From: Phoronis australis
Lineage: Eukaryota > Animalia > Phoronida
Assembly (NCBI GenBank): GCA_002633005.1
Contig: NMRA01000783.1
Location: 54,926 to 118,925, forward strand
DNA: 64,000 nucleotides
Direction: 5' to 3'
The translations under genes and the position numbers were made by a program. The notes below the pieces were generated by a model that searched no databases, was not told the origin of the DNA, and saw nothing but the letters and a program-made list of their open reading frames with translations. This document shows positions 14,351 through 50,300 of this stretch, one piece after another. Position 1 is the stretch's first letter, and every line of letters begins with the position of its first letter.

Positions 14351-15145
14351 CTTTCATCTTTAAAAAGGAGCAAACATTGACTAAAAATGGGAAAAGAAGT
14401 ATTTTACACACTGTCTTGCTCATGCCGGAGGAATGTGTCTGGTGCAAAAGGAACCAAAAAACTATGTTAAGCGTGGCCCAGTAAATTTTATTTTCTCACC
14501 CTCATGACTTTTATTAACTTACATTAAACTTGGCAGCGTAACCAGTACTTGGTCAATTTTGTTTGAAATCTACCGTGCAGACTATCCAAAGGAACGGTCT
14601 TACCAAAAGTTACCTGAAGTGTAGAGTTTTGGGGATCTTATTTTATCTTAGTAGAGAAACTGTTGTTGACTCAATTGGATTGTTACTTCCCTTAGATATG
14701 TCGTAAAATAAACAATATTTCTTGTCCGCTTTTTTGTCACTGTTGATTTTTTACCTCTCAATCCACCCACATTTGACGATTTTTTATGTCAGTAACTTTG
14801 GTTTGGGCCTCTTGCTACAATAGCATTGGTCTCTGCTTGCACTTTACCAGATAAGACCGAAGTGTTTTTCAGACTTTGGTTGAACTGGCATACTGTTGTT
14901 GCTGAAATTAGTTGGTAGTCATTTCATGCGCGCAGTGTTGTCAGCCAGAGTCACTAGTTCGTGCTTGGAATATTTCTGCCTTTTCAGGTTGCACTGGAGA
15001 TTGGTGTAGGGTGTTATTGTCACTTATTTCAATTAAAAATGCTGCTGCATTGGAAGAGCAAATTTGAGTGGGAAGAAAGTTGCTTTTGACTCCATGCTAC
15101 ATAACGGCTTTGATAGTAAATTGGAAACACTTCCAGCATTTGTTG

Positions 15146-15975
15146 TTTTTATGCGCCCACATATTTATATGTGGCGCATATTGCGTCATCTCTGTTTGTC
15201 GGGCTGTATCGCCTAGAACCTCACAGGATGTTGATGAGATTTGGCAGATGTGTTCCTATGAAGCTGACTACGGATTTCCATCGGACCCGACTGCTGGTGT
15301 GCCTCCTAGTGGCAATTTAGTTTTTTACGTTTACCTCTGTATCTTCAAAGGTCTTCCACCGATTTTCATGGGGCATAGACATCCATTAATAAGGTTACGC
15401 TATCCTCCTGTTTTCGGATGAATTCAACGTATTTTGCGCCCCTAGTGGCCTTTTTTACTGTTTTCGTGTCCTTCCCTCTGTCAACCAAACCACTTTACGG
15501 ATGATTGTGAAAAGTGGTATGTATAATATGTTCTTAGTATGGAGAATACGATTGATGATTTTCTGACGATTTCGACCTCTGTGGTGCCTCCTAGCGGCAG
15601 TTGTTTTTTTTTCTTGCTTCCATAGCTGTATCTCCTGAACCCACTGCGGGATCTTTGTTAAATTTAGCTAGCCAGTTGACATGGACGACAACTTGTGGAC
15701 GGATCCGACGAACTCTGTGCTCACTAGTGGCAATTTTATTTTATTTTTTATTTTTTCGTTTTCCCCTCTTTCTGTTAAGTTCCTTGACGGATTTTTATGA
15801 GATTTGGCAAATAGCTTTCTGTTAAAGAAACGATGTCATGTTGCCGTTTTCGGATGGATTCGACGTATTTTGCGCCATGTAGTGGCCATTTAAGGATGCA
15901 AATAAACCCCTCTAGAAGCACACCGTTCCGGTGCATTCGTAGGCGCGTTCAAACACTCCGCGTTGCTCTCATGTT
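15146..15975 (+). mobile_element. HINE/DINE-like (Helentron-associated) non-autonomous element with ~140-bp internal repeats
   Basis: T-run followed by the short palindrome ATGCGCCCAC-ATATTTATAT-GTGGCGCAT; diverged internal repeats each end in GCC(Y)CTAGTGGC; a related copy lies at 42356. Confidence 0.65.
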
Positions 15976-17091
15976 TAACAAATTGATGAGCTTTTTCACA
16001 AAAGTTGTTTTGCTGGAGAGTTTCACATACAGATGCGTGTAAGATGTTCAATGCATAGCGGTGTGTTTTTTAAACGCAAGTACGGTTCACGAGACCTTCA
16101 AGTCGAGAAATTTTCGCTTTTACAAGGCAAACTAGCGTATTCTATGTCAGAATTCAAAACGATTAGTCCTTTAAATGACCTTCATTTTTGCTGGTAGGCC
16201 TATGATAACGAGAGTCACTTGCGAAACGCTCGCTTTTCTCTCAAGTGATTTGGGTGGTTTCACTGCGTGGTCTCGCTTGAGGTGCCGGCGAGAAACCGCC
16301 GCACTCTCTAGCATACACGTACATTCTAGTAGGTAAGTATGCAATTTGAAAAAGGAGAAAATAAATGTTGAAAAAACAACTGCCAAAATTCTAGGACTGA
16401 CTTGCCATCCGAATGTCATCAAAGTAATTAAAGATGCATTCAAACTACGCGCCAACTCGCAACATTTGAGTCCAGAGAAAAATAACGACAGGGAAAGTCA
16501 TAGTTCGCGAGAAGAGTCAACGAGGCAGTAGATGTATGTGTGGAGTATAATTAATTTCATTTCCACCTATGTGTATCTCTGATGAATCAGTAAGATGGAA
16601 ATTTCTGGAAATCTGGACTGGTAGAAAAGAAATAAGCAAAACCCTGGAGTCCCACTCCTGTCTCGCAACGAGAAATCGAGCGCACAACCCCCATTGGAAG
16701 TACATGGCAATATGTCATGTGTACTTGCTTTTCTAGTGAGGTAATTAGCGTTATTGAACTCGATCCACGTACACCGAAAGCACGAAGCGACGCGAGATAA
16801 ACGCATTTGAGGTCGGATCAGGCGGCAATGTTTGCCTAACTTACGCTAAAAAATTTCATTAAACTATCGTTTTTCTGCAATAAATCTGAAGGTCTATTAC
16901 TGAAGAAGCCGCGTCTTACATGTTTACGACCTTTGCGGCCGTTAACACTCGGGATTTGTCAAAAGAATTGGCCACTGGGTATAAACCGGTGAACGGAGCT
17001 TATCGACGGTTCATTGACGCAACGAATCGTAAAGAAGTACTGAATCGCCTTGTTCACGCAATTATTCTCTGCAGACCAACTCGGTACCAAA

Positions 17092-17923: not shown

Positions 17924-18370
17924 CCAGTGGCCGGTTGCTTGAAACAGTCCCAAATAGGGACTCAACTAAGGTCTTTTTGCGTATTTGTGTCTTTATGGAC
18001 TCACAGATGCAATATTTTCCTATCATTTCATCTTTAATACGAGAGCCTCTTTGATTAATGACATTTTTCAAATAATATACATCTGTAACTAAAAACTGAG
18101 CATTGAGTCAATTAAAAAGAAATAGGGACTTAGTCCTTAAACTGGGGGTGTTGCATGAAAAGATCCCTATTTATTTTCGAAAATATTGACAATTCAACGT
18201 AGAGTTCCCTCTCGATTTGTATCAAAGTCAAAAGTTGTCTTAGTAACGGCACTAAAACAATACAAGAAAGGGCAATCGATGTTTTCACAAGTTCAAAAAT
18301 ACGCAGTAGATTTAGGGAACTTACTAAGTTGAGTCCCTATTTGGGACTGTTTCATGCAACCGGACACTGG
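17924..18370. mobile_element. MITE with ~45-bp TIRs
   Basis: CCAGTGGCCGGTTGCTTGAAACAGTCCCAAATAGGGGACTCAACT ... AGTTGAGTCCCTATTTGGGACTGTTTCATGCAACCGGACACTGG. Confidence 0.85.
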
Positions 18371-18413
18371 TTTATATTTTACAAAAGATTCCTTGCAAGA
18401 TTTAGGTCCAAGC

Positions 18414-18625
18414 CAGGGGCGGATCCAGGATTTTGAGTTAGGGGGCAGGGCACAGGAATACCAAAATTTTGCCACATGCGCGCGCCCAACCTAAAATGTA
18501 GGGATGCAGAGATCTCGAATTTTTGGGTTTGTGAACCTTATTGCTAAAAAAGAAAACGGTAAACGGGGNTCAGCAATTCGCATCCCGAACTGCCAAATGG
18601 TCCCCTATACCTAAATCCGCCACTG
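18414..18625. mobile_element. MITE, CAGGGGCGGATCCAGG family, 5-bp TSD
   Basis: CAGGGGCGGATCCAGG ... CCTAAATCCGCCACTG; TSD CAAGC on both sides. Confidence 0.8.
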
Positions 18626-18942
18626 CAAGCATGTTTATCCTCACGGTGCATCGCCCAGAGACCTTGTGCGGGGTAGCACAGAAAAAGGCGGGTGGCTGTA
18701 GCCACCCAGCCTCCTATGGTGCGCCGCCCATGATCCTGCAAGCAATTGGGGCGAAAATGGAACGAACTCCTAGTTACCAAGCATGCTTGAAATCTCTGGT
18801 GTTACTGACCCGGCAAACATCAATTCCGAGCACGTGTGATGCGCGTGGGACGCTCCGCTTTCCAAAATCAGCTGCGTCTATGTACGTGCAGTGAGGAACA
18901 TTCTTTCAGAGTAAGAGAAGTTCTTTAATAAACTGGACTAAG

Positions 18943-20940
18943 ATGCCGCCACACGACGTGGTCTCTTTCTGGGCACTGGTGTTCTGTGTCATTGCGTCAT
19001 TTCTCTTCCCCTGTGGTTTGGGAAATGGAAATAAAAACGACACCAGTAATCAACCTGTGAATGAATTACGAGGCTCTACAAAAAACAAAATCGGAGGTGG
19101 ACAAAATGAACAAGATGGTGAAGAAAATGAACAAATGTATGGAAGCGGTCAAGGCAGTGAAGAGATAGAGCAAGGCAGTGGTGAGACAACAGAGTGTGAT
19201 CAACCTATTCTTCTGAACGGAAAAATAGTTGGTAGCTTCAGTGAGAGGTACCGAGATGGCGACGGAGTGATTTTCAAATGTAACGGAGGATTTTTCTTGC
19301 AAGGAAACCAGGAGGCTATTTGTCAACCAAATGGAAATTGGACCAGTTTGCCTAATTGTACTGTATCAAATTCTACATGTTCAAGACCAATCTTAAAAAA
19401 TTCCATGGTTAAATCTGGCAAAAGGAAAGAATACAAGATCAACGAACAGGTAACAGTAGCCTGTATGCCGTCCTATTACATCATGCAAGGCTCGCCCTTA
19501 ATAACATGCTTGGGTTTATCGAATTGGTCTGGTGCACCAAGGTGCATGGAATCTACGAAAATCGCCGGCTCGATATTTCTCAATATAAGTTTTAGAGCGA
19601 TTTACAGTGACCTAAAAAATAGGACAACTATAGAGTTCGTTGAAACCATCGAGACGTGGCTCATATCGATATACAACAAAACAATTGCAGATTTCCACAA
19701 CGTGAAAGTTACCGGATTGGATAGAGGACGAGCTCTTGTTGTTGTAGATCACAACATAATCATTAAAGGACGTAAAACTGACTCTCAGCTCCATGAATTC
19801 GTAACGTTATCGTTGAAAAGGTTTGCCAATGGAAGCGTAGTTACGATAGAAAATCGAAATGTTAATGTCATTGGCCGACCGATCCTCAGATACAGTTCAC
19901 GAAATAAAACACAATCTGAAGAGGGAAATTTTAAAATAGTTGAAGAACCATTCTTTCTAATACTTCCCATTACTTGTGGTATCGTTGGATTATTAATTAT
20001 TGTAATTGGCATTGTTTTGTTGTGTAATCGAGCGAAAATGAAAAAAAGGAAAAACATTCAACAAGGACAAACAGCACCAAGAATACTGAGCCTAGCACCG
20101 CCGCCGCCTTGGGCACCTCAGGGTCAGACGGAAGTTGACCAAGGTAAACCTGATGAGAAAACTATCTCGCCTGAAACGTCAGTTTGCGCTAAGGGCTGGA
20201 AAACACTTCGGGAAAAGTGGAGTCCGTCCGAGGAAGTTGATCATGATAATTCGGTGAAAGTCCCGCCGCCTAAAATGGGAACGATAACGGAAGTGGAATC
20301 GACGACACATGCTGAGGTAACAGAGGAACCAGAAATCCCTGTAGAGATGCAACGGGGGAATTTGGTAACGTCGACACGTGACGATAATCTGGAAAAATTA
20401 TTGGAAATCGTTCAAAAGGCGAGGTCGTCCAGAGCAAGTGGCCAGCTTGGCGCCGAGATCAAGTTAGCCGAACGGAAAATGGATAAACTTAAAGCGATGA
20501 AAAAATACACGGAGAAAGTAGTTGAAAAAACAAAAGAGATTGCTCAAGAAGTCAAGCGTTATCATCACCCCCCGCCCGTACTTTTCGACATTGTGATTGC
20601 CATGTTACTGTTCTGCGGAGAACACGAAGATAAAACACGCGAATGGCGAAACTGTCAGCAATATTTCACAATGCACGCGTCAACTGACACGCTGTGGATA
20701 TTCGAAAGACTCGCTGACATTAAACTGAAACACATACACCCGGAGATTGCTACGCGAATTCTGGAAATCATTGGCAAGCACGATTTCATGGATGTGGCTG
20801 AAGCCAGTAGGGGAGCAAATGTCATGTACTTATGCCTAAGAACAATTTGCGAGAAAGTTGTTGCTGGCGTTGTTGGCACAAAACCAGCTGTAGGAGAAAG
20901 ACAGGCTCAACTTCTCTCTGAAATGACAAAGAAAATTTGA
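18943..20940 (+). CDS. Intronless type I membrane protein: signal peptide, 2 CCP/Sushi, SEA-like, TM, cytoplasmic dynein-stalk MTBD-like domain (665 aa)
   Basis: Uninterrupted 1998-nt ORF. Hydrophobic N-terminus (aa ~7-27); CCP cysteine/tryptophan pattern at aa 85-139 and 146-201; SEA-like aa ~203-315; TM aa 337-361 followed by basic RAKMKKRK; many NxS/T sequons on the extracellular side; C-terminal aa ~533-637 matches dynein MTBD motifs. Confidence 0.9.
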   Translation: MPPHDVVSFWALVFCVIASFLFPCGLGNGNKNDTSNQPVNELRGSTKNKIGGGQNEQDGEENEQMYGSGQGSEEIEQGSGETTECDQPILLNGKIVGSFSERYRDGDGVIFKCNGGFFLQGNQEAICQPNGNWTSLPNCTVSNSTCSRPILKNSMVKSGKRKEYKINEQVTVACMPSYYIMQGSPLITCLGLSNWSGAPRCMESTKIAGSIFLNISFRAIYSDLKNRTTIEFVETIETWLISIYNKTIADFHNVKVTGLDRGRALVVVDHNIIIKGRKTDSQLHEFVTLSLKRFANGSVVTIENRNVNVIGRPILRYSSRNKTQSEEGNFKIVEEPFFLILPITCGIVGLLIIVIGIVLLCNRAKMKKRKNIQQGQTAPRILSLAPPPPWAPQGQTEVDQGKPDEKTISPETSVCAKGWKTLREKWSPSEEVDHDNSVKVPPPKMGTITEVESTTHAEVTEEPEIPVEMQRGNLVTSTRDDNLEKLLEIVQKARSSRASGQLGAEIKLAERKMDKLKAMKKYTEKVVEKTKEIAQEVKRYHHPPPVLFDIVIAMLLFCGEHEDKTREWRNCQQYFTMHASTDTLWIFERLADIKLKHIHPEIATRILEIIGKHDFMDVAEASRGANVMYLCLRTICEKVVAGVVGTKPAVGERQAQLLSEMTKKI

Positions 20941-21271
20941 TTTGTACCAGTTTTCAATTAGCCACATGCCTTTGTGTCATGCTCTTTGGTGTGATCAGAA
21001 ACCAAGGAAGACAAGTTAGCCTAGACCGATCCAGAAGTCGCTGTGGTATGGAGTTTTCTACGCAGGTTTTGTTTCCAAACTCGCGTGAACAGGCCATGTG
21101 ACGTTATACATGTATCTTCAACAGTTGGTCACAACATGCTCACGTAAAGATGATTTGAACTATAAAATTGTTTACATGTGTATTTTTGTAAGTTTTCATT
21201 GTTTTACTCGTGACGAGTTCTTAGTTACAAATTCCTCTGCAAAACGCTCTCTAGCGTACATGTCCCCAAAC

Positions 21272-21427
21272 CAATGCTGTAGTGGTAAAATAAGACGTAA
21301 GTAGGCGCCCAAAGCCCACCGTACCACCTTGAGCACTGAACATAACTAACGGTACGTAGGCGCTACGTTCAAATGCCAAAAGGTGGTTGGCTGCGCCTAC
21401 GTGCGCCTACGCCCCACTACAGCTCTG
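21272..21427. mobile_element. hAT-like MITE with 8-bp TSD
   Basis: CAATGCTGTAGTGG ... CCACTACAGCTCTG; flanks CCCCAAAC / TCCCAAAC (7/8 match). Confidence 0.65.
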
Positions 21428-21972
21428 TCCCAAACAATGGCCAAGATTCAAATTTAACCAAATTTGTTATTTTCGTACCTGGAAACTAATCTCGACCGTT
21501 CGTCCGGGTACACAATCCCCAAAGTCGCCCGCATGTCTTTGCATTCTCTATATCAATAATCGCGGCATACATTTCTCTGGGGTTCTGGACCCCGAAATAA
21601 TTTTTTCGCGACTATTGTTGAGGACTACTAACACACGTGGCTTTGGGGATGTTCTGGATGTGGGTCAAAGATATTCGTTTGGATGAATAAAATATGAAAA
21701 TTTAGGTTCAGTTCGACTGACCTGAATCGGTATCATTCATCTAATTTCGAGTCCAGTTACACCTGTACTTTTAACACTGCTTATGCGATTACTTTGTCTT
21801 GGAAATTATTGACAAGTCTTTACACGTGTTCGATAACTACATGTATGTGCAAAACCACAAAAATTAGCTACCTATGATATATATTTTCTGACAGGTGCAT
21901 ATTAGCATCCTGATGACATTTTATTTTTGACTTCGTGCCAGTCTGTCACTCAGTAGTTTTGTCACGTGTCCA

Positions 21973-23072
21973 TGTCTTAATAAATTATACCAAAAAGAAG
22001 AGTACAATATTATTCACACCAAAACAAAAACATCAGTAACAAGTTTAAGCCGAAATTCATTTGCTATCTATGTTCACAGAACTCAAATTAAGACGTTATG
22101 TTTTTAAAACATCTTTTATGCAACTTGATTTTGATTTTTGTTCACAAAAATTGTAAATATTCTGTTTTTGATTGAAGAGTACATAAAGCCCAGAATGCGT
22201 TCGATCGATCATTTCTTAGTCACGTTGAACATGACGTTTGTTCCAAAGTCAGATTGGGCGTTCAGTGCCTACAGGTACCGTCAAGGGAGCTACCTTGTAA
22301 AAAAAAAAACGTTTACCGCTAGCCGTTAATGGACTTTTCACGTAAATAATCTAGTGCTGCGACTTTGTGAGAGAGCACCCCGGCCCATTCGAAAATGTTT
22401 TCAGTTACAGGCCACTATATCAGAAAGGTTTTGAGCATACATGTACGGATTGGCTCGCGACATTTTTGTGTATATTGGGTTCATCCAAAGCGAATTCCCG
22501 GCAATGCATCCCCCTAAGCCGAACANTGTCTTAATAAATTATACCAAAAAGAAGAGTACAATATTATTCACACCAAAACAAAAACATCAGTAACAAGTTT
22601 AAGACGAAATTCATTTGCTATCTATGTTCACAGAACTCAAATTAAGACGTTATGTTTTTAAAACATCTTTTATGCAACTTGATTTTGATTTTTGTTCACA
22701 AAAATTGTAAATTTTCTGTTTTTGATTGAAGAGTACATAAAGCACAGAATGCGTTCGATCGATCATTTCTTAGTGACGTTGAACATGACGTTTGTTCCAA
22801 AGTCAGATTGGGCGTTCAGTGCCTACAGGTACCGTCAAGGGAGCTACCTAGTAAAAATAAAACGTTTACCGCTAGCCGTTAATGGTCTTTTCACGTAAAT
22901 AATCTAGTGCTGCGACTTTGTGAGAGAGCACCCCGGCCCATTCGAAAATGTTTTCAGTTACAGGCCACTATATCAAAAAGGTTTTGAGCATACGGATTGG
23001 CTCGCGACATTTTTGTGTATATTGGGTTCATCCCAAGCGAATGCCCGGCAATGCATCCCCCTAAGCCGAACA
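21973..23072. repeat. ~550-bp near-identical tandem duplication joined by a single N (probable assembly artefact)
   Basis: 21973-22525 vs 22527-23072, N at 22526. Confidence 0.9.
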
Positions 23073-24313: not shown

Positions 24314-25690
24314 CAAGCGCCGATCCAGGATTTTGAGCTGAGGGAGCACTGGGCAGAGACAAACGACGCCCGAACTGCTACTGGAAAGATCTGCCATGCC
24401 GTGAATAATACGCTTACAAGGAAGTCACGCATTTCTAAAGATATGCGGGAATTTTCACCGCTCGTCGTTCTGAGCGGCTTGCACCAGGATCAAAGAGAAC
24501 TCGGCGCCGGAATCAGGTACAAATGCGATGACCGCATTGCCCGATGCGAGAAAGACCCAATTAAATGCAATTATCCGACCATAAACTGTATTAAACATCT
24601 CTGACTGTACAATGTACATAGTGGCAAATTTTCAAAATGCATTAACCACTAATTTTCGTTATAAACGAACACCACGGCGGTATTCAGCTGAAAAAAAAAA
24701 CACTAGTACGGTTTTCGATTTTTAAAAATCGACGAACTCACTAATAATCTAAAAACTACAACAATTGTGTACGATTGAAGATAAACTACCGCGCGTATTG
24801 ATATACTTGGTGGATATACAAACGCTGATCAGAGTTAACAATATCACATGGATTCATTTTTAATATTCTTTCAATCTCGATCGTTTAACCAGATTTTTGA
24901 CCATTAAACAGTTGTTGTGCCCACTTTTCATTTTTTTATTACTGACAAAGGGCTAGAATAGTTAGTCAGTGCCACCAAAATTGTCCAGAGATTACAAATC
25001 TTCAGTTTGGTTATCACCATATTTGTACTTTTGCATATATTTTATGATTTGAGTTCTAATAAAGTTTAAAATTTAATGACATGTGAAATGTTTAGTGTAC
25101 CTGTAATGTGGTAAGTTTAGGGATGGGCTCACAATGAACTTAACTAATTAAATTTAACTGGCGATCAAAATCTACCACTGTTTTGGTATTTCAATTTCAA
25201 AACTTAGATAAAAAGTTATCAACCCGTCGGTTAATTCGCGGTAAGAAAAAAAAAACAAGTGGGCAGAAACATTAAAAATTACACAAAGGAAACCAATATG
25301 AAACTTATCATTCCTTGGGAAGTGGCCCTTTTGTGAAGATAAACACAAGTTAACCTTTTTAGTCATTTTGTAATACTTTATAATGTACCAAGTTAAAACT
25401 ACCGTACTCTCCAGAGTTGCAGGCTATAACTCCTGCCAAACGTCAGAGCTAGAAAACCAGCTTGATTGGGCCGGTACTATTGTTGAGACAGTCTTGCTAG
25501 CAATTACCTTTCCACTTCATTACCTCAGCATCAATACAAAGAGCGTGCTGAATAGGCCTCATAAAAGTTGTCTGGGGCTTAGGGAATCAGAGCGGCAACC
25601 AGTGCAAGCGAGAAATTCTCCACGTAGGAAGAATTTTGTGGGGCCGGGTGCATGGCCCCTTTAAGTTTTTCGCCCCTAAATCCGCAACTG
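24314..25690. mobile_element. Longer (~1.38 kb) degenerate member of the CAGGGGCGGATCCAGG family
   Basis: CAAGCGCCGATCCAGGATTTTGAG ... CCCCTAAATCCGCAACTG; flanks GACAT / GACAC. Confidence 0.5.
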
Positions 25691-26313: not shown

Positions 26314-26332
26314 ATGCCGGTTCGCAAGCAAG
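26314..26332 (+). CDS. dlg1: dlg1 exon 1
   Basis: MPVRKQ G|gtgagt, the canonical Dlg1/SAP97 start. Confidence 0.92.
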
Positions 26333-32300: not shown

Positions 32301-35300
32301 AGGAGAATATACAAAACAGTAAGAGTGTTTTTGAGATCTCATTTTGAAAATCTATATCAAATGAAATCTAGTCTCATCATGTCATTGACAGTGTTGTTTT
32401 GCTGTCAAAGATTGTACCTATCTCTTTTGCTAAATTATACTAAAAAGACATGACCACGTGACCAAGTTCATGGCAGATACGAAAATCAAATTTTACTGGC
32501 TAAATCTGTTTTCAGAAAACATATAATACGTAATTTTTTGAGCCCAAACCGAAGCTAATGGTCTATAATGAGCCAACTTCACCAAAACATCGAGGCGCCG
32601 GCATCGGCATGAAAGGCTCTCTAGTTCGTTGGTCTCATAGTGTTTTCTTCGTTTTCAAGATGCCCACCGTGCGTTGGAACTGCTGGAAGAATATCACACC
32701 AAACTCAACCGACCACAGGACAAGCCCCTTCGCACTGCTATAGAACGAGTCATCCGAATTTTTAAAAGCAGGCTCTTCCAGGCCTTACTTGGTAAGTATT
32801 TCAACCTCTGAATTGCACAGCCTGTTTCAGGGACCTCCCTCCTGATAGCATCCATGTTCAAATGGTTGCATTTGGGGTATCAATTGGACAAGAGACCCCT
32901 TATTTGTTCATTATCTGTATCAATGCTAACACTCATTGTTAAGCTGTCAGATGTTAAAAATAACAAAGTAGGCTATTCAAAGCCCCCTGTCTAAAAGTAA
33001 AGGTTTGAATCAGGTCAGTTGTGTGTAGGCTGAAGTTATGGTGTTCAATTCCATTTTGGCATTGGAATTTAACTTGGAAAAAGATGAAATTTCCACATTT
33101 TGATAGGCTGCTGGCACTTTTCTATGAAGACATTTCCGTAATTTCAAGCACATTATAATTTTATACATTAATTTTCTACGTGAACTGGTGTCATCGAATT
33201 CATTGGCGTGGCCTTATATTTTTTTTAGCACATCTTGTGACTGAAGTTAAGTGCCATTAACTGTGCTGTCAGAATAAACAAATGTTTTCTGATGCTGCTA
33301 GTCCACACCTAAATTCCAAGCTCTTCAAAACCTATTGTGCAATAGACCTAACCAGGCTGTGTACAATTTTTCATTTCATTGGTATTCTGTTTTCACAGGA
33401 TGCTACCCACAACAATTGGGCAGGTTTCTGCTTTCTGTCTAAGTGCTAATTGCTATTCACCGAGTTTGTTGGATAGTGGAATTTTGGGGCGTAAGATTTT
33501 AGCCTGTTTACAGATTACGGTAATTGCCAGCTAAAGAGATCTAGTGTAGTGTATACTAGTGATGATCTTATATGCAGTGGTAATGGTGTGGTATTCACTG
33601 TGGACAGTACATTAACGTGTTTTGTTTAATTAAAGTACTTATGCTTCTAATTAGTAGAGACAGTCAACCAATCAATCCTGTGTCCAGAAGTGCTGTGTAT
33701 GACTAGGCCTTGGTTGTGGCTCCTGAATGTCAGTTTTTTAGCTGAAGTTATTTTAGTCCTTCACAATTTACTAGAGATTAAAACTGCTGGATATAAAAGA
33801 GGCCACGCTCATGTTCTGTTTGAGTAGATGTAAAAGTTCTTCGAAACTGGGTCAATTTCTAACCTTGATGCACACACACTGACACACAAGCTGTAAAGAG
33901 AGCTAGGTACTTGTTCAGACATACTCACTGCACTTTAAACTGTTGGGAACTGTTCTTATTAAGTGAGTACGCCATTTGTTTTGACCTATAGATGCATCCA
34001 TATTGATTGATGGCGGCAAACGACTGCTAGTGCAGTTATCTTAATGTAAAAACGGTTAATTGCTCGTTAATAATTTTCTATCCATATTGACATGTCACTG
34101 TGGTCCTGGTGAGAAGGGAGCGTGTCTGCTTGTCAGTGCTGTATTCGTTTCAAAATAAAAAAAATTGTCATATGGTGACTTCAGTGAGGGGCTTGGGTTT
34201 CAAGAGTGCCAGGCGAAGTCTGCTTTTTGCGTTTAAGAGTTGATGCAAGCTCCATGCAGCAAAGCATCCATGTGTTCTGTTGCTTTAAATGGACATCCTC
34301 GACGAGAAAGTAATTTTTGTAAGTTAGCAGTATCGTGGTTTCGAATGTACTGCCTCTGCAGTATCAACCAAACGCTCTACCGCTTGAAGCCCAACCTCGT
34401 GTTAAAAAGCAAATTACACATGTTTAAATGGTAAAGACACCAGCCTCGATTTCAGTGAATATTTGGCAGACAACAGTGAGAATTGAAAGATTTGTAAAAA
34501 ACAATGGGTTTTGTTGTTTTATAGCTCTGATCAAAGCTATTAGCTTTTAGAGGTGTAATTATTTAACAATAAACTCAAAAATGTGTTTTTTGATTGCAAA
34601 AATGGAAATATCCCTTTCAATGATGCTGACGTCTGTGTCTATCAGGGTCAGATTAGACACTCAGAGTTTGAGAAAACAAAATTGTACCGCAAACCAAGCA
34701 ATCAAGGAAAAAACAGAAGTGAAACATTGCCTTTATTCTTGAGGCAATCTTTGCTTTTTGCTTCCCATTTTTTTCTTGTAGCGAAGATTCATCAATTTTG
34801 GCTGTAACATTATCGGCAAGGAGAAGGATTTTCTGAAATCACCCCCTGTACATATTCGAACCTGGAACCTTCGAGATCACTTTGCTGATGAGCTAAGTCG
34901 CTCTCGCTTAATGACAGATTATTTTAAGCGTATTTAAGTGGTATTTAAAGTAAGTAGCAGAGACTGTTGAGGATTGCCGACAGATTTTATTGTTTTATGG
35001 CTCTGCTCAAAACTGATCTCTGCAAAACGTCTATCATATCCAAAAATAATCCCAAAATCCGTTTTTCAGATGTAGCAACAATAATATTCCTTGGATATTC
35101 ATTTGGAAAACAACAGGCTATGATGTACATATAAATAGTGTGACTTGGGTGACCATATCACTTGCTTGGTATACACAAATATGCTTGGTTGCATCCATTT
35201 GAACATCCTCTAGATGGCGCCTAGGTCACACTCCAGTGTTAAATGCATCATTCTTTTCAGATATTCAAGAGTTCTATGAGATCACTCTCTTGGATGAGCA

Positions 35301-44300: not shown

Positions 44301-47300
44301 TCTGGTTTCAAGCAGTCATTGGCTTTCACTTATCAATACGTTATCTAAATTAAACATTATTTTTTGTTAAGGCGAGTTTATGACAGCTTTAAAACCTAAC
44401 AGTAACGGAATTTTGTTATTTTAGATATACTGGACTAACCAGGTAGTTAGCAAAGCCATAGCAAAGTCAGAAAGCGCGAGTTCAATCACGCAAATGTAGG
44501 CCAGTCAAATGATAGGTGAAGCTGCCTTTTCACATCATGTTGCGTCACAGCGAGATCCCTGCACGAACAGCAAAAGGCCGATAACAGTTGTATTGAATAG
44601 AGGGTATAATTAGAACACCACTGTGTGTGGGAGGTGTTCGCTGCTGTTTGAATTAAAAGGACTTGGTGATTCTCGCGGGGATGTAGACAAAAGCAAGCCA
44701 ATTCGCCTAACAGTTCGTTGCATTTAGCAATTTAAAGCGCGAGTGAGCTCAGAGCGATGCTCTTAACATACTGTAGGAACCACATTCACAGGTCTTACCG
44801 TTCAAGATAGGCTGAATTAATAGAAAAAACATGTTACAAACCTTTATAGCTTTTTGTGAAGTCTCTCAGGTCAATACACGAAGGCTGTTGGTTATATTTA
44901 TGAAAACACACGAAGGCTGTTGGTCATATTTATGAAAACAATCCTACACTGACATTCACACCGGTTTTCTAACCTTGAAATTTGCTGCTGTCTTCTAAGA
45001 AACCATCCAGCTGATGATATCGCTCTCTGGAGATGAACTGGGGGTAATTAGGCACGGAATTGCCCATCATAAACATGGTTGTTAACAATGGGGCTGACAA
45101 TAGTATTGTCTCATTTTAAAAGCTCTTAAGTAGCATATTTGAATAATTCGTGAAAAGTAGACATCGTCTGGTTTTTGAGTTTTGAAAATTGTACAAGAAA
45201 TGTGACTTCTGTAACCTAAAACTAGAAAGTAGTCTACATCCAGTATTTTGCTTCATTAGTTCTGCTGAGCGTGCAACACAATGGGACAATTACCAAGCCG
45301 ACGTCACGAACCAGCAGTTGGAAATTGAAGAATGTCAAGTGTCGTGATCGTATAATTGTGGGCATGTGACAACTTTTGCAAACATTGCTATTTTCGACTC
45401 AAGAGATTTAATTGGAGGAGTTAAAATTAGTCCCTTTCCATTTAGGGTTTAGTGTTACAAACATTTTGAGTGGGAGATCACTGTCGCAAAGACCTTGCAT
45501 TCACAGGATATTTTGCACACGAAATTGACAGTTTTCACAAGACAATTTGAACATCTGAATATTTTCCTCGCATAAGAAACGTGAAGAAAACATAAGGCAA
45601 AACTGTGATAATAAAATCTATCCAGCAGTGCATGGTTTTAACAAGCCCCATGCGTCTTGACACACCAGTAAAGTTCCCATTGTACCCTGTGTAAAATCTT
45701 AAGCAAGAAGTGTATATACTTTTGAACTTCCAATTTGAAAGTTAAATAATCTTGTATGGCAAAAATGGCGATAAAAGATATCTTTTGAAATATTGCAGTG
45801 AAATGCATTATAAAACTAACGTTTCAGTGCCACGCCCCATTTCAGTTGAACCGGAAGTAACTCTTCGATAAAGAAGATAGTTTTGCTGTTGGACGAACAG
45901 ACAAATGTAAACCTTGTTTGAAAATGGGTTGAATTTCTGTGCAAAGAACAAGTGTTATTTGTTTATTTATTGTTAAATTTTTGTGATGGAACATACTGCA
46001 AGAGAATGTATACGCCGAGCAAAGTTAGGAGACAGGAATTGTACGACTTGAGATATTTTAACAGGTAAACAGTTGCTGAGAATTTTTGAGGAAATGGTCG
46101 CTTAGCGGCTTAGACAGCTTATCGCGTCAAAACCTCATCTGAATTCAAAACGAGATTAAAGTTCATTGATAAAGCCAGAAAAGACGTAATTGGTTCTGGT
46201 ATTTGTTATTTTAAAATTGATATGGTGATGTGGTATTTTCATTGCCCACTGTCAAAAACGTGAAAAGAAAAGGTCTGACGCCAGGTGGAATCTGTTGGGA
46301 TTGTTATCTAGTGCCACCTGGTATCAATTTTCAGGTGCAAGAGTCAAAAGTAGAACCAATGTTGTTTTCTGAACATGATTTTAGTTACATTACTCCCTCT
46401 TTTGGTATGCAGATATCCAGCAAATGATGCCAGCAAGGTTTTGAATTCTAATTTTAAGCGAACGTCGCACCTGGTTTAATGCCAATGCATTTTATTGTGT
46501 ATTTTAGCTTTTTTGTAATCCTAGTATGGAATGTGAAATGTAAATTATCGGTAACAGTCTCAAACTAGCCTGCTTAAATTACGACTTGCTCGTTTAACTC
46601 ATCCACTATTGCATTCATTTAACCCTGTCGAGGGTCTCTGATTTTCTGATAATAAAAAATATGCTCGTCTTACATTGTTTTGTAAATTAGCAGAATTCGT
46701 TGTACTCTCTTTAAGTAATAATTAATTTTAAAATTATTTGAGAATTGTCTTATTCTTTCTGCTGCATTAATGCCCCAACTGTGTTCTACTGATAAATTGC
46801 TGCTTGCCGTGTTAATTGTTTTTAAGTCTTCAAGAATAACAGTGTCACCTTTGAAAAGTATGAACGAACTTGAATGTCTGCTGCTACAAATTGATCAATT
46901 AGTCCAGAACGGGTATTGTTTCAGGAAATTTGATTTGTAATTTTACAGACTGCTTTGCACATGTTGATGAAGCTTCTAAAATATTTTGCAGGGAACCTAG
47001 GAAGGTTGTCCTTCAAAAGGGAGCAAGTGGTCTGGGTTTTAACATTGTGGGCGGTGAAGATGGAGAGGGGATATTCATCTCTTTCATCATGGCTGGCAAT
47101 GTGGCTGATCTGAGTGGAGAGCTTAAACGAGGCGACCAAATACTCTCGGTAGGTTCACAGAGGATTTTAGTGAAGTACGGACTAAAATTGTTGAAGAAAT
47201 TGGTCCACTTTTAGTTGTCAAAGGCTTCAAATGTTGTGAATGCCCACAATTCCCCAGAAATTTNCAGAACGGGTCTTGTTTCAGGAAATTTGATTTGTAA

Positions 47301-50300
47301 TTTTACAGACTGCTTTGCACATGTTGATGAAGCTTCTGAAATATTTTGCAGGGAACCTAGGAAGGTTGTCCTTCAAAAGGGAGCAAGTGGTCTGGGTTTT
47401 AACATTGTGGGCGGTGAAGATGGAGAGGGGATATTCATCTCTTTCATCATGGCTGGCAATGTGGCTGATCTGAGTGGAGAGCTTAAACGAGGCGACCAAA
47501 TACTCTCGGTAGGTTCACAGAGGATTTTAGTGAAGTACGGACTAAAATTGTTGAAGAAATTGGTCCACTTTTAGTTGTCAAAGGCTTCAAATGTTGTGAA
47601 TGCCCACAATTCCCCAGAAATTTGTCTAGTGATAGCTGTAGCATGGGTTTTGAAATATGGCATTTATTTGATATTAGTGGTATCTTTTATGAAAAATGAC
47701 AGTTGGCTTTGTAATTAGTGGCAATGGGGAGTCCCTTCAAAGGCCCTTCTTCCTAAGAGGCTTGCTGCCTATTTTTTCCCAAGGGTTGCATACATATTGA
47801 TTTTGTTTTGACAGTCACATATCACATACATGATTTAGTGATTGATTGCAGTGAACAGGATTTGCTCTGTACTTAATGTCTGCTTCGTCTATTCCAGGTA
47901 AATGGCGTAGATCTGCGCACCTCGACGCATGAAGAAGCAGCCGTTGCTCTGAAAAATGCTGGTGATACTGTAGAAATCATGGCCCAGTACAGGCCTGAAG
48001 GTATGGAGTCTGCGCTTGAGCGTTAAGACTGGGCTGCAACTGCTGTCTGGAATGTCTCAGTTGGCCACGTACATATCATAAAGCAGGGTCTTCTGTGCTC
48101 GTAGTTTGTGTACATTCCGAATTTTTTGTTGTATTCTGGGACACTTTATGTTATTCTAGATATCCGTAGTCGAAGAATAATCATTGTATTGTTGTTATGT
48201 TATTTTTGTGCTTGCTAACGTTTTATTTTTAATGTTGATCCGGTAATGTGGTTCATTTCACTCAAATTAGGTGGTAGGTAAACGGGATATTTTTTTGTAA
48301 ATTTTGCAGGTTTCTTTATTTAAGCACAAGGTGCACTGCGAATCAAAATGCTGTTGTTTCGATACAATCTTTGAAATGTCTGGTGAATTTCATCCAGTCT
48401 TACTATCGTGTGCATGAATTCGAATAATTGTGTGGCAAGGTCAGGGGTTTAATTATCACTGGTAGTTCACGTAGGTCAGTAAGCATGCTTGTTTATCGGA
48501 TCACGTACTGTAAAAAGTGACTACATCCTCTGGACATAAGATTTAGCGTGCACCTCTCCCATTGCATTTCAATGTGCAGCACTGCCGAAACTGCAGTCAT
48601 AGGCTTCGGTCGGTCAGCTGTTTTTCGCGCGGTTGCTACACAGTAATCTATTCCAGACCCGTGCATGTTGTCCGGTACTAACAGGGGCCGTAGCATTTGA
48701 TGTGTTGTAGCACTGCATGTGGAATGAACCGTCCCCCCATGCAACGCATGTTGACATACCATAAGAAATTTTATTGGCACTTGAGCTCGCGAGAAATTAT
48801 GTCTGCTGAAAATAGTTTGAGTGAGCATTTCTCGAAAATCTAGATGTCACGATGTCGTCACTTTGAAACTTAATGACCTTACTGACTCTTTTTGTCTTTT
48901 GTTTTATTCTTGCTCTACAAAATAACAAAGCGCTGAAACGGCACTAGTTTAGCCTTGTATTTCTGTTTTGTTATTTCTGTCGCCGCATCTAATGTGTCTT
49001 TGTCACAGTGCCAATAAAATTTCTTTTACGTTACTGTGTGTTTTATTTGAGCAGCAACTTGAATGTGATATTATTTTCGTCTCCTTCTGCACTTTAGGTC
49101 CTTGACAATTTCTAAACAAACAATGTTAATGTGTTAGGTTGTATGTTTCGTTCGAATTTTAGCTTGCGTTGTGAAAATGTCCTGGTGGAAGTCAGTGTTG
49201 GCCAAATAAATAAAAATGGTTCCATCCGCAACAATGCTGTTTGCTCACGCATGTTGTAGCAAACAGAGAATGTCTACTGACCTAGTGGAACACGACAGCT
49301 GCTTCAAAAAAATTTATCAAAATCTGATTTGGAAGTGGGAACAAAGTTGTCTTAAGATAACAAACTGGGTGTCCACACTGGGCATTTTCAAAAAAAATAA
49401 AGTTGTGAAAGCAAATACCCGGAGGCAATAACCAAAACAAAATGTAAGGGTCTATTCACAATTTTTTCATTATCAGGAGCACGAAGGCTGCTTTTAAGAA
49501 GTGGAGGTGTTATGGGCTGCCACATCAGTGCAGGGACATCAAAAATAGAGATAGTCCGAACATTCCGGGAATCATTGCATTTTTCTGGAAGAATTGGTTT
49601 GAGTTTTTGTCAGTTTTTGGAATATTTTTGACAGCTGTCCAGAATACTACGAATGATTTTTACCATCTCCATATCTTGGGCAAAGTTTCCCTCAGTCCAA
49701 AAGAGTTGCTGTTTGGCCTGCCAACATGGGCTTTAATCGGACAATAATCGTGTACAAAGCCTTGTTTATCGGTGTACTGAGTGCAGGCAGCCAAGCTCTG
49801 CCACNNNNNNNNNNNNNNNNNNNNNNNNNNNNNNNNNNNNNNNNNNNNNNNNNNNNNNNNNNNNNNNNNNNNNNNNNNNNNNNNNNNNNNNNNNNNNNNN
49901 NNNNNNNNNNNNNNNNNNNNNNNNNNNNNNNNNNNNNNNNNNNNNNNNNNNNNNNNNNNNNNNNNNNNNNNNNNNNNNNNNNNNNNNNNNNNNNCCCCTC
50001 CTTGTGACATTCTAGATCTGCTAAAATTTACCATTGTGACACATGTAGTTTGATTCATCCTGGCTTAAACGTCAACACAGCTTCACATACAGCTAAATAT
50101 TCATACATTACGATAAATTGTATTTTAAACCAACTTCAATACACTGCATTCCTGGGAAGCTCACATTTATACATCTTCACCTGTATCTTATCGTGTTGAC
50201 AAGAAGGGTGTTTAAATTGATTAACTAGTGAAAATTGTTGGAATTCTTGTTCCACTGCATGCTGGTGTCGTTGCTAAACTGATACCGAACAATGTTACTG

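Follow-up and report, generated by a model that had tools for sequence, protein, structure and literature searches.

An open reading frame (ORF) of Phoronis australis encodes a predicted type I membrane glycoprotein with two extracellular Sushi domains, a single transmembrane (TM) helix and a cytoplasmic tail. Profile searches and a predicted structure identify the end of this tail as a true homologue of the dynein stalk tip, the microtubule-binding domain (MTBD), diverged and motor-less. According to sequence comparison, the domain belongs to a motor-less MTBD family and was not taken straight from dynein; its most likely mode of action is that of a dynein MTBD without the motor, though the protein is not a dynein. 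The combined architecture of Sushi ectodomain, TM helix and MTBD tail is real and apparently undescribed. Microtubules usually reach the membrane via adaptors or anchored dynein; if the reading is true, a membrane-spanning protein able to grip them in the manner of dynein would form a one-piece link from the cell surface to the lattice. The ORF lies in a 64-kb stretch of DNA analysed as a whole (the window), whose features are collected in Table 1.

Table 1 Features of the locus, in window coordinates
Feature	Position (nt)	Strand	Evidence or remark
Single-exon ORF, 665 aa, predicted type I membrane glycoprotein	18943–20940	+	X4 contig, X5/X6 RNA
Predicted signal peptide, ~aa 1–27	18943–19023	+	Hydropathy peak aa 6–24
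Acidic Ser-Gly segment, aa 55–84, net charge −10	19105–19194	+	Two SG dipeptides, acidic context
Sushi/CCP domain 1, aa 85–139, 4 Cys	19195–19359	+	Pfam PF00084; PDB matches factor H, CR1, CR2
Sushi/CCP domain 2, aa 146–201, 4 Cys	19378–19545	+	Second PF00084 stretch; Cys positions
Putative SEA-like block, aa 205–318, 114 aa	19555–19896	+	Resemblance of pattern
TM helix, aa 338–361, then basic patch	19954–20025	+	Hydropathy 3.05, one strong peak
Cytoplasmic linker, aa 362–479, Pro/Glu/Thr-rich, two proline runs	20026–20379	+	Sequence
Two-helix hairpin into short CC1, aa 480–528	20380–20526	+	AlphaFold helices, alignment A1
Dynein MTBD fold, end of CC1 + H1–H6 + short CC2, aa 522–645	20506–20877	+	Profile, AlphaFold, structure alignment
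C-terminal loop and helix, aa 646–665	20878–20937	+	AlphaFold, alignment; similar extension in lophotrochozoan subfamily
Probable 3′ UTR	20941–22019	+	RNA depth drop; repeat inside (~21218–21618); AATAAA at 21686 and 21979
Discs large (Dlg1)-like gene, multi-exon	26314–64000	+	Same strand, 5.4 kb downstream of ORF

Predicted architecture and topology

The ectodomain is dominated by a Sushi pair, which matches Pfam PF00084 in two stretches (E = 2.4e-20, 73.1 bits against a cut-off of 20.7) and is the sole significant Pfam family in the 665-residue protein. Its eight cysteines all lie N-terminal of the TM helix, and all ten N-glycosylation sequons fall within aa 32–321, with none in the 304-residue tail. 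Together with the signal peptide, the single TM helix and a positive-inside charge distribution, this makes type I topology well supported on the basis of hydropathy and motif counts. The TM region additionally gave weak matches to Syndecan and TM_ErbB1, below the Pfam cut-off. In the acidic segment preceding the first Sushi domain, the two Ser-Gly dipeptides are what we take to be possible glycosaminoglycan attachment sites. The cytoplasmic linker is likely disordered, judging from its composition.

An earlier note on this DNA, made from the letters alone, had described a signal peptide, two Sushi domains and one TM helix, all of which are recovered here, together with a SEA-like domain, which is unconfirmed. 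The block following the Sushi pair presumably resembles a SEA domain in its pattern; residues 202–326 gave no Pfam match, PF01390 included, and no meaningful PDB sequence match.

The extracellular half has the order of CD46-, CR1- and CR2-type proteins, namely a signal peptide, tandem CCP domains and one TM helix. To our knowledge those proteins have short tails without a folded cytoskeletal domain, and the likeness implies no complement role for the protein described here. The Sushi–TM–MTBD order was not found again in three word-indexed searches, two of which scored the top ~8000 candidates, or in one full HMMER scan; since only those top candidates were scored in the two, the missing orthologue is weak evidence. 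Of these two, a search near the length of the protein yielded 44 proteins, all of them soluble and listed without Sushi or SEA, and a search for longer homologues (top ~8000 candidates scored, and crowded) returned four proteins, three of which are dyneins.

The tail domain and its motor-less relatives

The earlier note had placed a dynein-MTBD-like block at aa 533–637 (nt 20539–20853), exactly where it lies, and the homology it proposed stands. Taken as a single sequence, the tail has no match to Pfam MT (PF12777), and a word-indexed search gave none among 534 candidates, so that the dynein link needs the relatives of the tail. A lectin match in the PDB obtained with the single sequence (E = 0.082) was rejected as spurious. 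A full HMMER scan with aa 480–665 retrieved 77 proteins at E ≤ 0.001; 15 of them match PF12777 in its central part, three above the cut-off, and none matches the dynein AAA families. The Pfam comparison called for in the earlier note thus fails with the tail alone and succeeds through its relatives.

We aligned the tail with 47 of the 77 relatives, choosing the shorter ones (alignment A1), and compared the resulting profile with the PDB. Among the best 60 of 76 rows, 58 are dynein heavy chains or MTBD constructs and two are designed bundles; one 4,583-residue row is labelled radial-spoke. The best E-value is 1.5e-12, for DNAH6, followed at 7e-12 by the isolated yeast MTBD, and one relative (P0004) matches DNAH6 in the PDB on its own (E = 1.6e-5). 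A profile built without the Phoronis protein scores its core at 80.3 bits, compared with 0.3 for the reversed protein, 42.4–50.0 for three dyneins and no more than 9.5 for any of the reported shuffles (941 of 1000); with the hairpin included, the score is 124.5 against 48.6–54.3 for the same dyneins.

AlphaFold modelling with alignment A1 (48 sequences) yielded a confident structure (pLDDT 92.4), replacing a poor single-sequence model (pLDDT 53.8) whose fold searches were uninformative. In this model, six short helices (H1–H6) between CC1 and CC2 superimpose on solved MTBDs: mouse dynein 3ERR (Z 11.7, rmsd 2.6 Å, 111 aligned residues), 5AYH (Z 11.6, rmsd 2.1 Å, 110 aligned) and, over 110–120 residues at Z 11–11.7 and rmsd 2.1–2.7 Å, dynein stalk tips in general (known from 3ERR, 5AYH, 6KJO, 6RZB, 8I3J and DNAH6). 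The top five of 48,161 structural representatives are dynein MTBDs, in agreement with the modelling check proposed in the earlier note. Foldseek also placed dyneins near the top with no E-value below 0.001 (best 0.016), and our structural claim is based on VIA-align and the ranking, not on the Foldseek E-value.

Like the dynein MTBD, which occupies the middle of PF12777, the domain carries a helix-1 glutamate among basic residues, a proline pair and a helix-3 Trp-Arg; Gly559, Trp568 and Ser622 are likewise retained. Unlike dynein, it sits on the tail of a membrane protein, has a glutamate in place of the helix-6 arginine, and is without AAA+ ring, linker and long antiparallel coiled-coil stalk. 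As the earlier note had it, no AAA ring is present: the Sushi family alone is significant, the stop codon follows 25 residues past CC2, and the window holds no other long ORF. The proposal that the MTBD had been freshly grafted from dynein does not hold, given the profile scores above. Identity points the same way, reaching 33% at best to the motor-less family and 16–19% to three dyneins.

The family sits, by sequence, at the C-terminus of many invertebrate proteins, KY/hillarin-like ones above all, and the hairpin at aa 480–528 is common to its members in A1. The KY-like Ig domain PF23265 occurs in 29 of the 77 relatives, and the members known by name (19 of the 77 first matches were looked up) come from molluscs, annelids, a brachiopod, a flatworm and amphioxus. 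KY-peptidase/hillarin/LTD-1-like proteins (PF01841 plus PF23265) and EF-hand proteins called ‘trichohyalin-like’ carry the same C-terminal module, unannotated there; unlike the Phoronis protein, they are soluble, none was found with Sushi domains or with such a signal peptide and TM helix, and their identity to it is at most 33%. Two relatives (P0003 and P0135) contain two or three MTBD-like copies, with three matches in a pearl oyster KY-like protein. The group mislabelled ‘trichohyalin-like’ (P0058, P0077, P0099–P0125) is conserved between molluscs and a brachiopod, and its members have EF-hand-like helices at the N-terminus as well as a charged coiled coil and the MTBD-like domain. One candidate, P0069, proved not to be a member of the family.

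In a tree built from 88 non-redundant domains out of 126 (115 columns), the Phoronis domain falls in a group of 24 rows with 99/98 support, alongside limpet, leech, tubeworm, Dimorphilus and Macrostomum proteins, which suggests a lophotrochozoan host and donor. The branch of the Phoronis domain is long (1.32, compared with a median of 0.38). A search for further invertebrate proteins joining a TM segment to such a domain, as the earlier note had advised, was productive: TM segments precede the module in four of the 77 relatives, namely amphioxus CLCA-like, mucin-like and CD20-like predictions and an unnamed ENA protein. P0029 and P0048 were not counted as TM proteins, since their hydrophobic peaks belong to KY-type regions. 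In amphioxus XP_035689228.1 (CLCA-like), XP_066263927.1 (mucin-3A-like) and CAH1240778.1, an ectodomain or TM segments lead through a low-complexity linker and helical units to the same module at the C-terminus. These proteins differ from ours in that they are uncharacterised gene predictions with other ectodomains, and their domains group apart. Forcing the four TM relatives together with the Phoronis protein was rejected (AU p = 0.009, on 34 rows, with a quick tree, a simple model and a grouping picked after the first tree had been viewed), which makes it likely, though not proven, that the membrane-protein fusions arose separately.

Among solved structures, a motor-less counterpart is Chlamydomonas RSP2 (7JTK chain C, residues 354–584, named through the matching 7JRJ chain I), which has the same fold. 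It is the top Foldseek row (E = 0.016) and aligns with model residues 1–162, hairpin included (Z 10.9, rmsd 5.8 Å, 146 aligned); by sequence, a family member weakly matches its residues 465–518 (E = 0.027). RSP2 differs in being a soluble subunit of the axonemal spoke head and neck, without TM helix or ectodomain. An MTBD-like fold also occurs in a bovine sperm axoneme chain (9FQR Xl, residues 1326–1494; Z 8.2), which, from its length, we guess to be EFCAB5. A Toxoplasma intraconoidal microtubule chain (9YA2 L) matches weakly, over 124 of 162 residues (Z 6.5, rmsd 3.6 Å), in a range common for the tool; from its size it is probably ICMAP2, whose globular domain binds between protofilaments according to the available parts of PMC12819142. 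In those parts, dynein is absent from the main text and appears in a reference only. Nor is a likeness to the MTBD mentioned in the accessible portions of PMC11779644 (searched with its supplements), PMC12399478 and PMC10309588. The ‘MTBD-like’ element of the TTLL11 papers was discarded as a precedent; in the excerpts of PMC12366701 it is a different helix-loop-helix motif.

In the full-text literature, which leaves subscription papers mostly outside, we found no motor-less dynein MTBD on membrane or hillarin/KY proteins. The earlier note had known the architecture from no characterised protein. Its apparent novelty lies in the particular Sushi–TM–MTBD order; it does not extend to the components, since motor-less copies exist in solved structures and other membrane proteins carry the module. 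The joining of a membrane protein to an MTBD is rare, not unique. A motor-less MTBD on the tail of a cell-surface protein seems not to have been described before, and this use probably arose more than once.

Predicted microtubule contacts and possible function

Six salt-bridge residues of the yeast dynein MTBD are listed in the available text of PMC7042235. Counted along the 6KJO alignment onto A1, four of the six positions are kept (K3117–K531, E3122–E536, R3124–K538 and R3152–R569) and two are changed, R3159 to T576 and, with reversed charge, R3201 to E620. In yeast, mutation of R3159 or of R3201 each cut affinity more than twofold (PMC7042235, in part). The mouse contacts include K3299 and R3337, according to excerpts of PMC6629372.

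Helix 1 retains an acidic residue with basic neighbours (K531, E536 and K538), and the helix-1 glutamate is the only acidic contact described in the accessible part of PMC4298687. This glutamate, which pairs with α-tubulin R402, is present in all 124 full-length family rows, isoforms included. Combined with lysine or arginine at the R3124 position in 85% of the family, its invariance suggests that the motor-less family keeps a tubulin-facing surface. In helix 3, R569 is kept and T576 is not, and three axonemal-type dyneins lack both residues at these columns.

Helix 6 lacks its basic contact, with E620 at the R3201 position, where all three dyneins compared have lysine and the family is mostly acidic or neutral (11% K/R). 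R623, three places after E620, might substitute for it and occupies the place of Dictyostelium K3472. Pairing of R3469 and/or K3472 with α-tubulin E416 has been proposed (PMC4298687, in part), and yeast K3204, which matches K3472, was dispensable in the available text of PMC7042235. At position 619 there is an alanine here and K/R in 67% of the family. The core has a net charge of −2, where three dyneins have +1, +3 and +4 and the family averages +1.3 (sd 4.3); helix 6 itself is at −2. Where 122 of 124 family rows have a tryptophan as CC2 begins, the Phoronis copy has C631; the loss of this near-invariant residue and the long branch point to a relaxed or changed function. We put specific microtubule binding by this copy, weak if present, at a little under even.

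Our preferred explanation, which we hold tentatively and as slightly short of an even chance, is that the protein is a cell-surface glycoprotein whose motor-less MTBD tail serves as a weak, ATP-independent tether of microtubules near the membrane. The predicted topology would leave the domain inside the cell at the end of a flexible cytoplasmic linker of ~120 residues. With the AAA ring missing and a CC2 of only 18 residues, there would be no stalk sliding, and thus a fixed affinity without ATP-driven switching. That affinity would come mainly from helices 1 and 3 and, for want of the usual helix-6 arginine, would be low; avidity would be supplied by clustering in the membrane. As to origin, the module may derive from the lophotrochozoan motor-less family, with its KY/hillarin-linked and stand-alone members, and have been fused to a Sushi-bearing ectodomain, possibly via an mRNA intermediate, given the intronless coding sequence.

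An MTBD fold need not mean lattice binding, as RSP2 carries the same fold at the spoke head. The tail could instead dock onto a protein other than tubulin, the role that the copy in RSP2 appears to have; we consider this reading unlikely on balance. The match of RSP2 to the model with its hairpin is in keeping with docking, as are its C-terminal part, which extends to the spoke head surface in excerpts of PMC10774353, the rarity of K/R at the R3201 position in the family and the negative helix 6 of the Phoronis copy. Yet every full-length family row has the tubulin-pairing glutamate, which is retained here together with the basic residues around it, and in helix 6 most members keep a basic contact through an arginine that usually stands one place earlier. 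We know of no alternative partner.

More doubtful still is that the gene is a lineage-restricted chimera whose MTBD-like tail is a drifting passenger, with the ectodomain doing the work or the gene doing little. We found no orthologue in the searches above, the best family identity is low, the branch is long and the CC2 tryptophan is lost, all of which would fit drift, as would low expression and an intronless coding sequence beside the multi-exon Dlg1-like gene. Against this, no stop codon has interrupted the 665 codons in spite of deep divergence, the domain is modelled with high confidence, and the helix-1 contacts, proline pair, Gly559, Trp568 and Ser622 are all in place. The listed alleles, a tiny sample, also run counter to drift in the tail: both codon changes in the tail domain are synonymous, compared with four of five upstream that alter the protein.

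A wider proposition, which we regard as possible and advance with some reserve, is that the dynein tip is a mobile invertebrate module, fused at least twice independently to the tails of surface proteins to yield lattice-binding receptors without adaptor or motor, coupling adhesion to cortical or ciliary microtubules. The analysis reveals that many mollusc, annelid, brachiopod, flatworm and amphioxus proteins of KY/hillarin-like, EF-hand and CLCA-like type end in an unannotated domain. It also provides a direct way of asking whether an MTBD fold without a stalk can bind microtubules, and diverged copies of this kind, as natural experiments, can show which contacts are important.

The gene and its surroundings

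The gene is real and transcribed at a low level. Its stop-free frame extends over 681 codons, the runner-up in the window reaching 179, and in a DNA run from a second sample (X4) a single unbroken contig of 2197 nt spans 18904–21101 with the ORF intact, differing from the window at 16 positions and in five gap letters. Between 69 and 90% of the words of the 64-kb stretch are present in four DNA runs of one study. Reads were mapped for four of the eight listed runs, using about one-fifth of each RNA run. Sense-strand RNA covers all six ORF bins in X5 (3.8–5.8×) and X6 (0.7–6.4×), and X7 shows no ORF expression; the strand call takes first mates, all on the minus strand, as sense, assuming the usual stranded library. 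The transcript over the whole ORF that the earlier note had looked for is thus seen in two of three RNA runs, as depth rather than as single molecules. RNA depth falls to zero from 22020 onward. A pyrimidine run ending in AG at 18900–18912, ~30 nt 5′ of the ATG, resembles the splice acceptor of a 5′ UTR intron.

High-copy repeats at 15000–16000, 18010–18811, 21218–21618 and 24400–25600 attract reads from many other loci; the third lies within the probable 3′ UTR and the others flank the gene. It is very improbable that misassembly produced the fusion or that two genes have been taken for a single one: repeats with depth in the thousands at 18010–18811 and 21218–21618 flank the locus, no single RNA molecule was seen across the ORF and the X4 contig has its gap letters, but that contig is unbroken, sense RNA fills every ORF bin in X5 and X6, and none of the joints listed falls inside the ORF.

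The downstream gene is presumably Dlg1-like, on the strength of its motifs, and marks the window as animal DNA. Its first coding exon lies at 26314, with L27 exons near 32660 and 35260 followed by PDZ, SH3 and guanylate-kinase exons. Nesting of the ORF within a Dlg1 intron was rejected for the isoform with this first coding exon. The third PDZ exon occurs twice within 46903–47574, in nearly identical copies 360 nt apart with an N at 47264 between them, which is probably a haplotype or assembly duplication.
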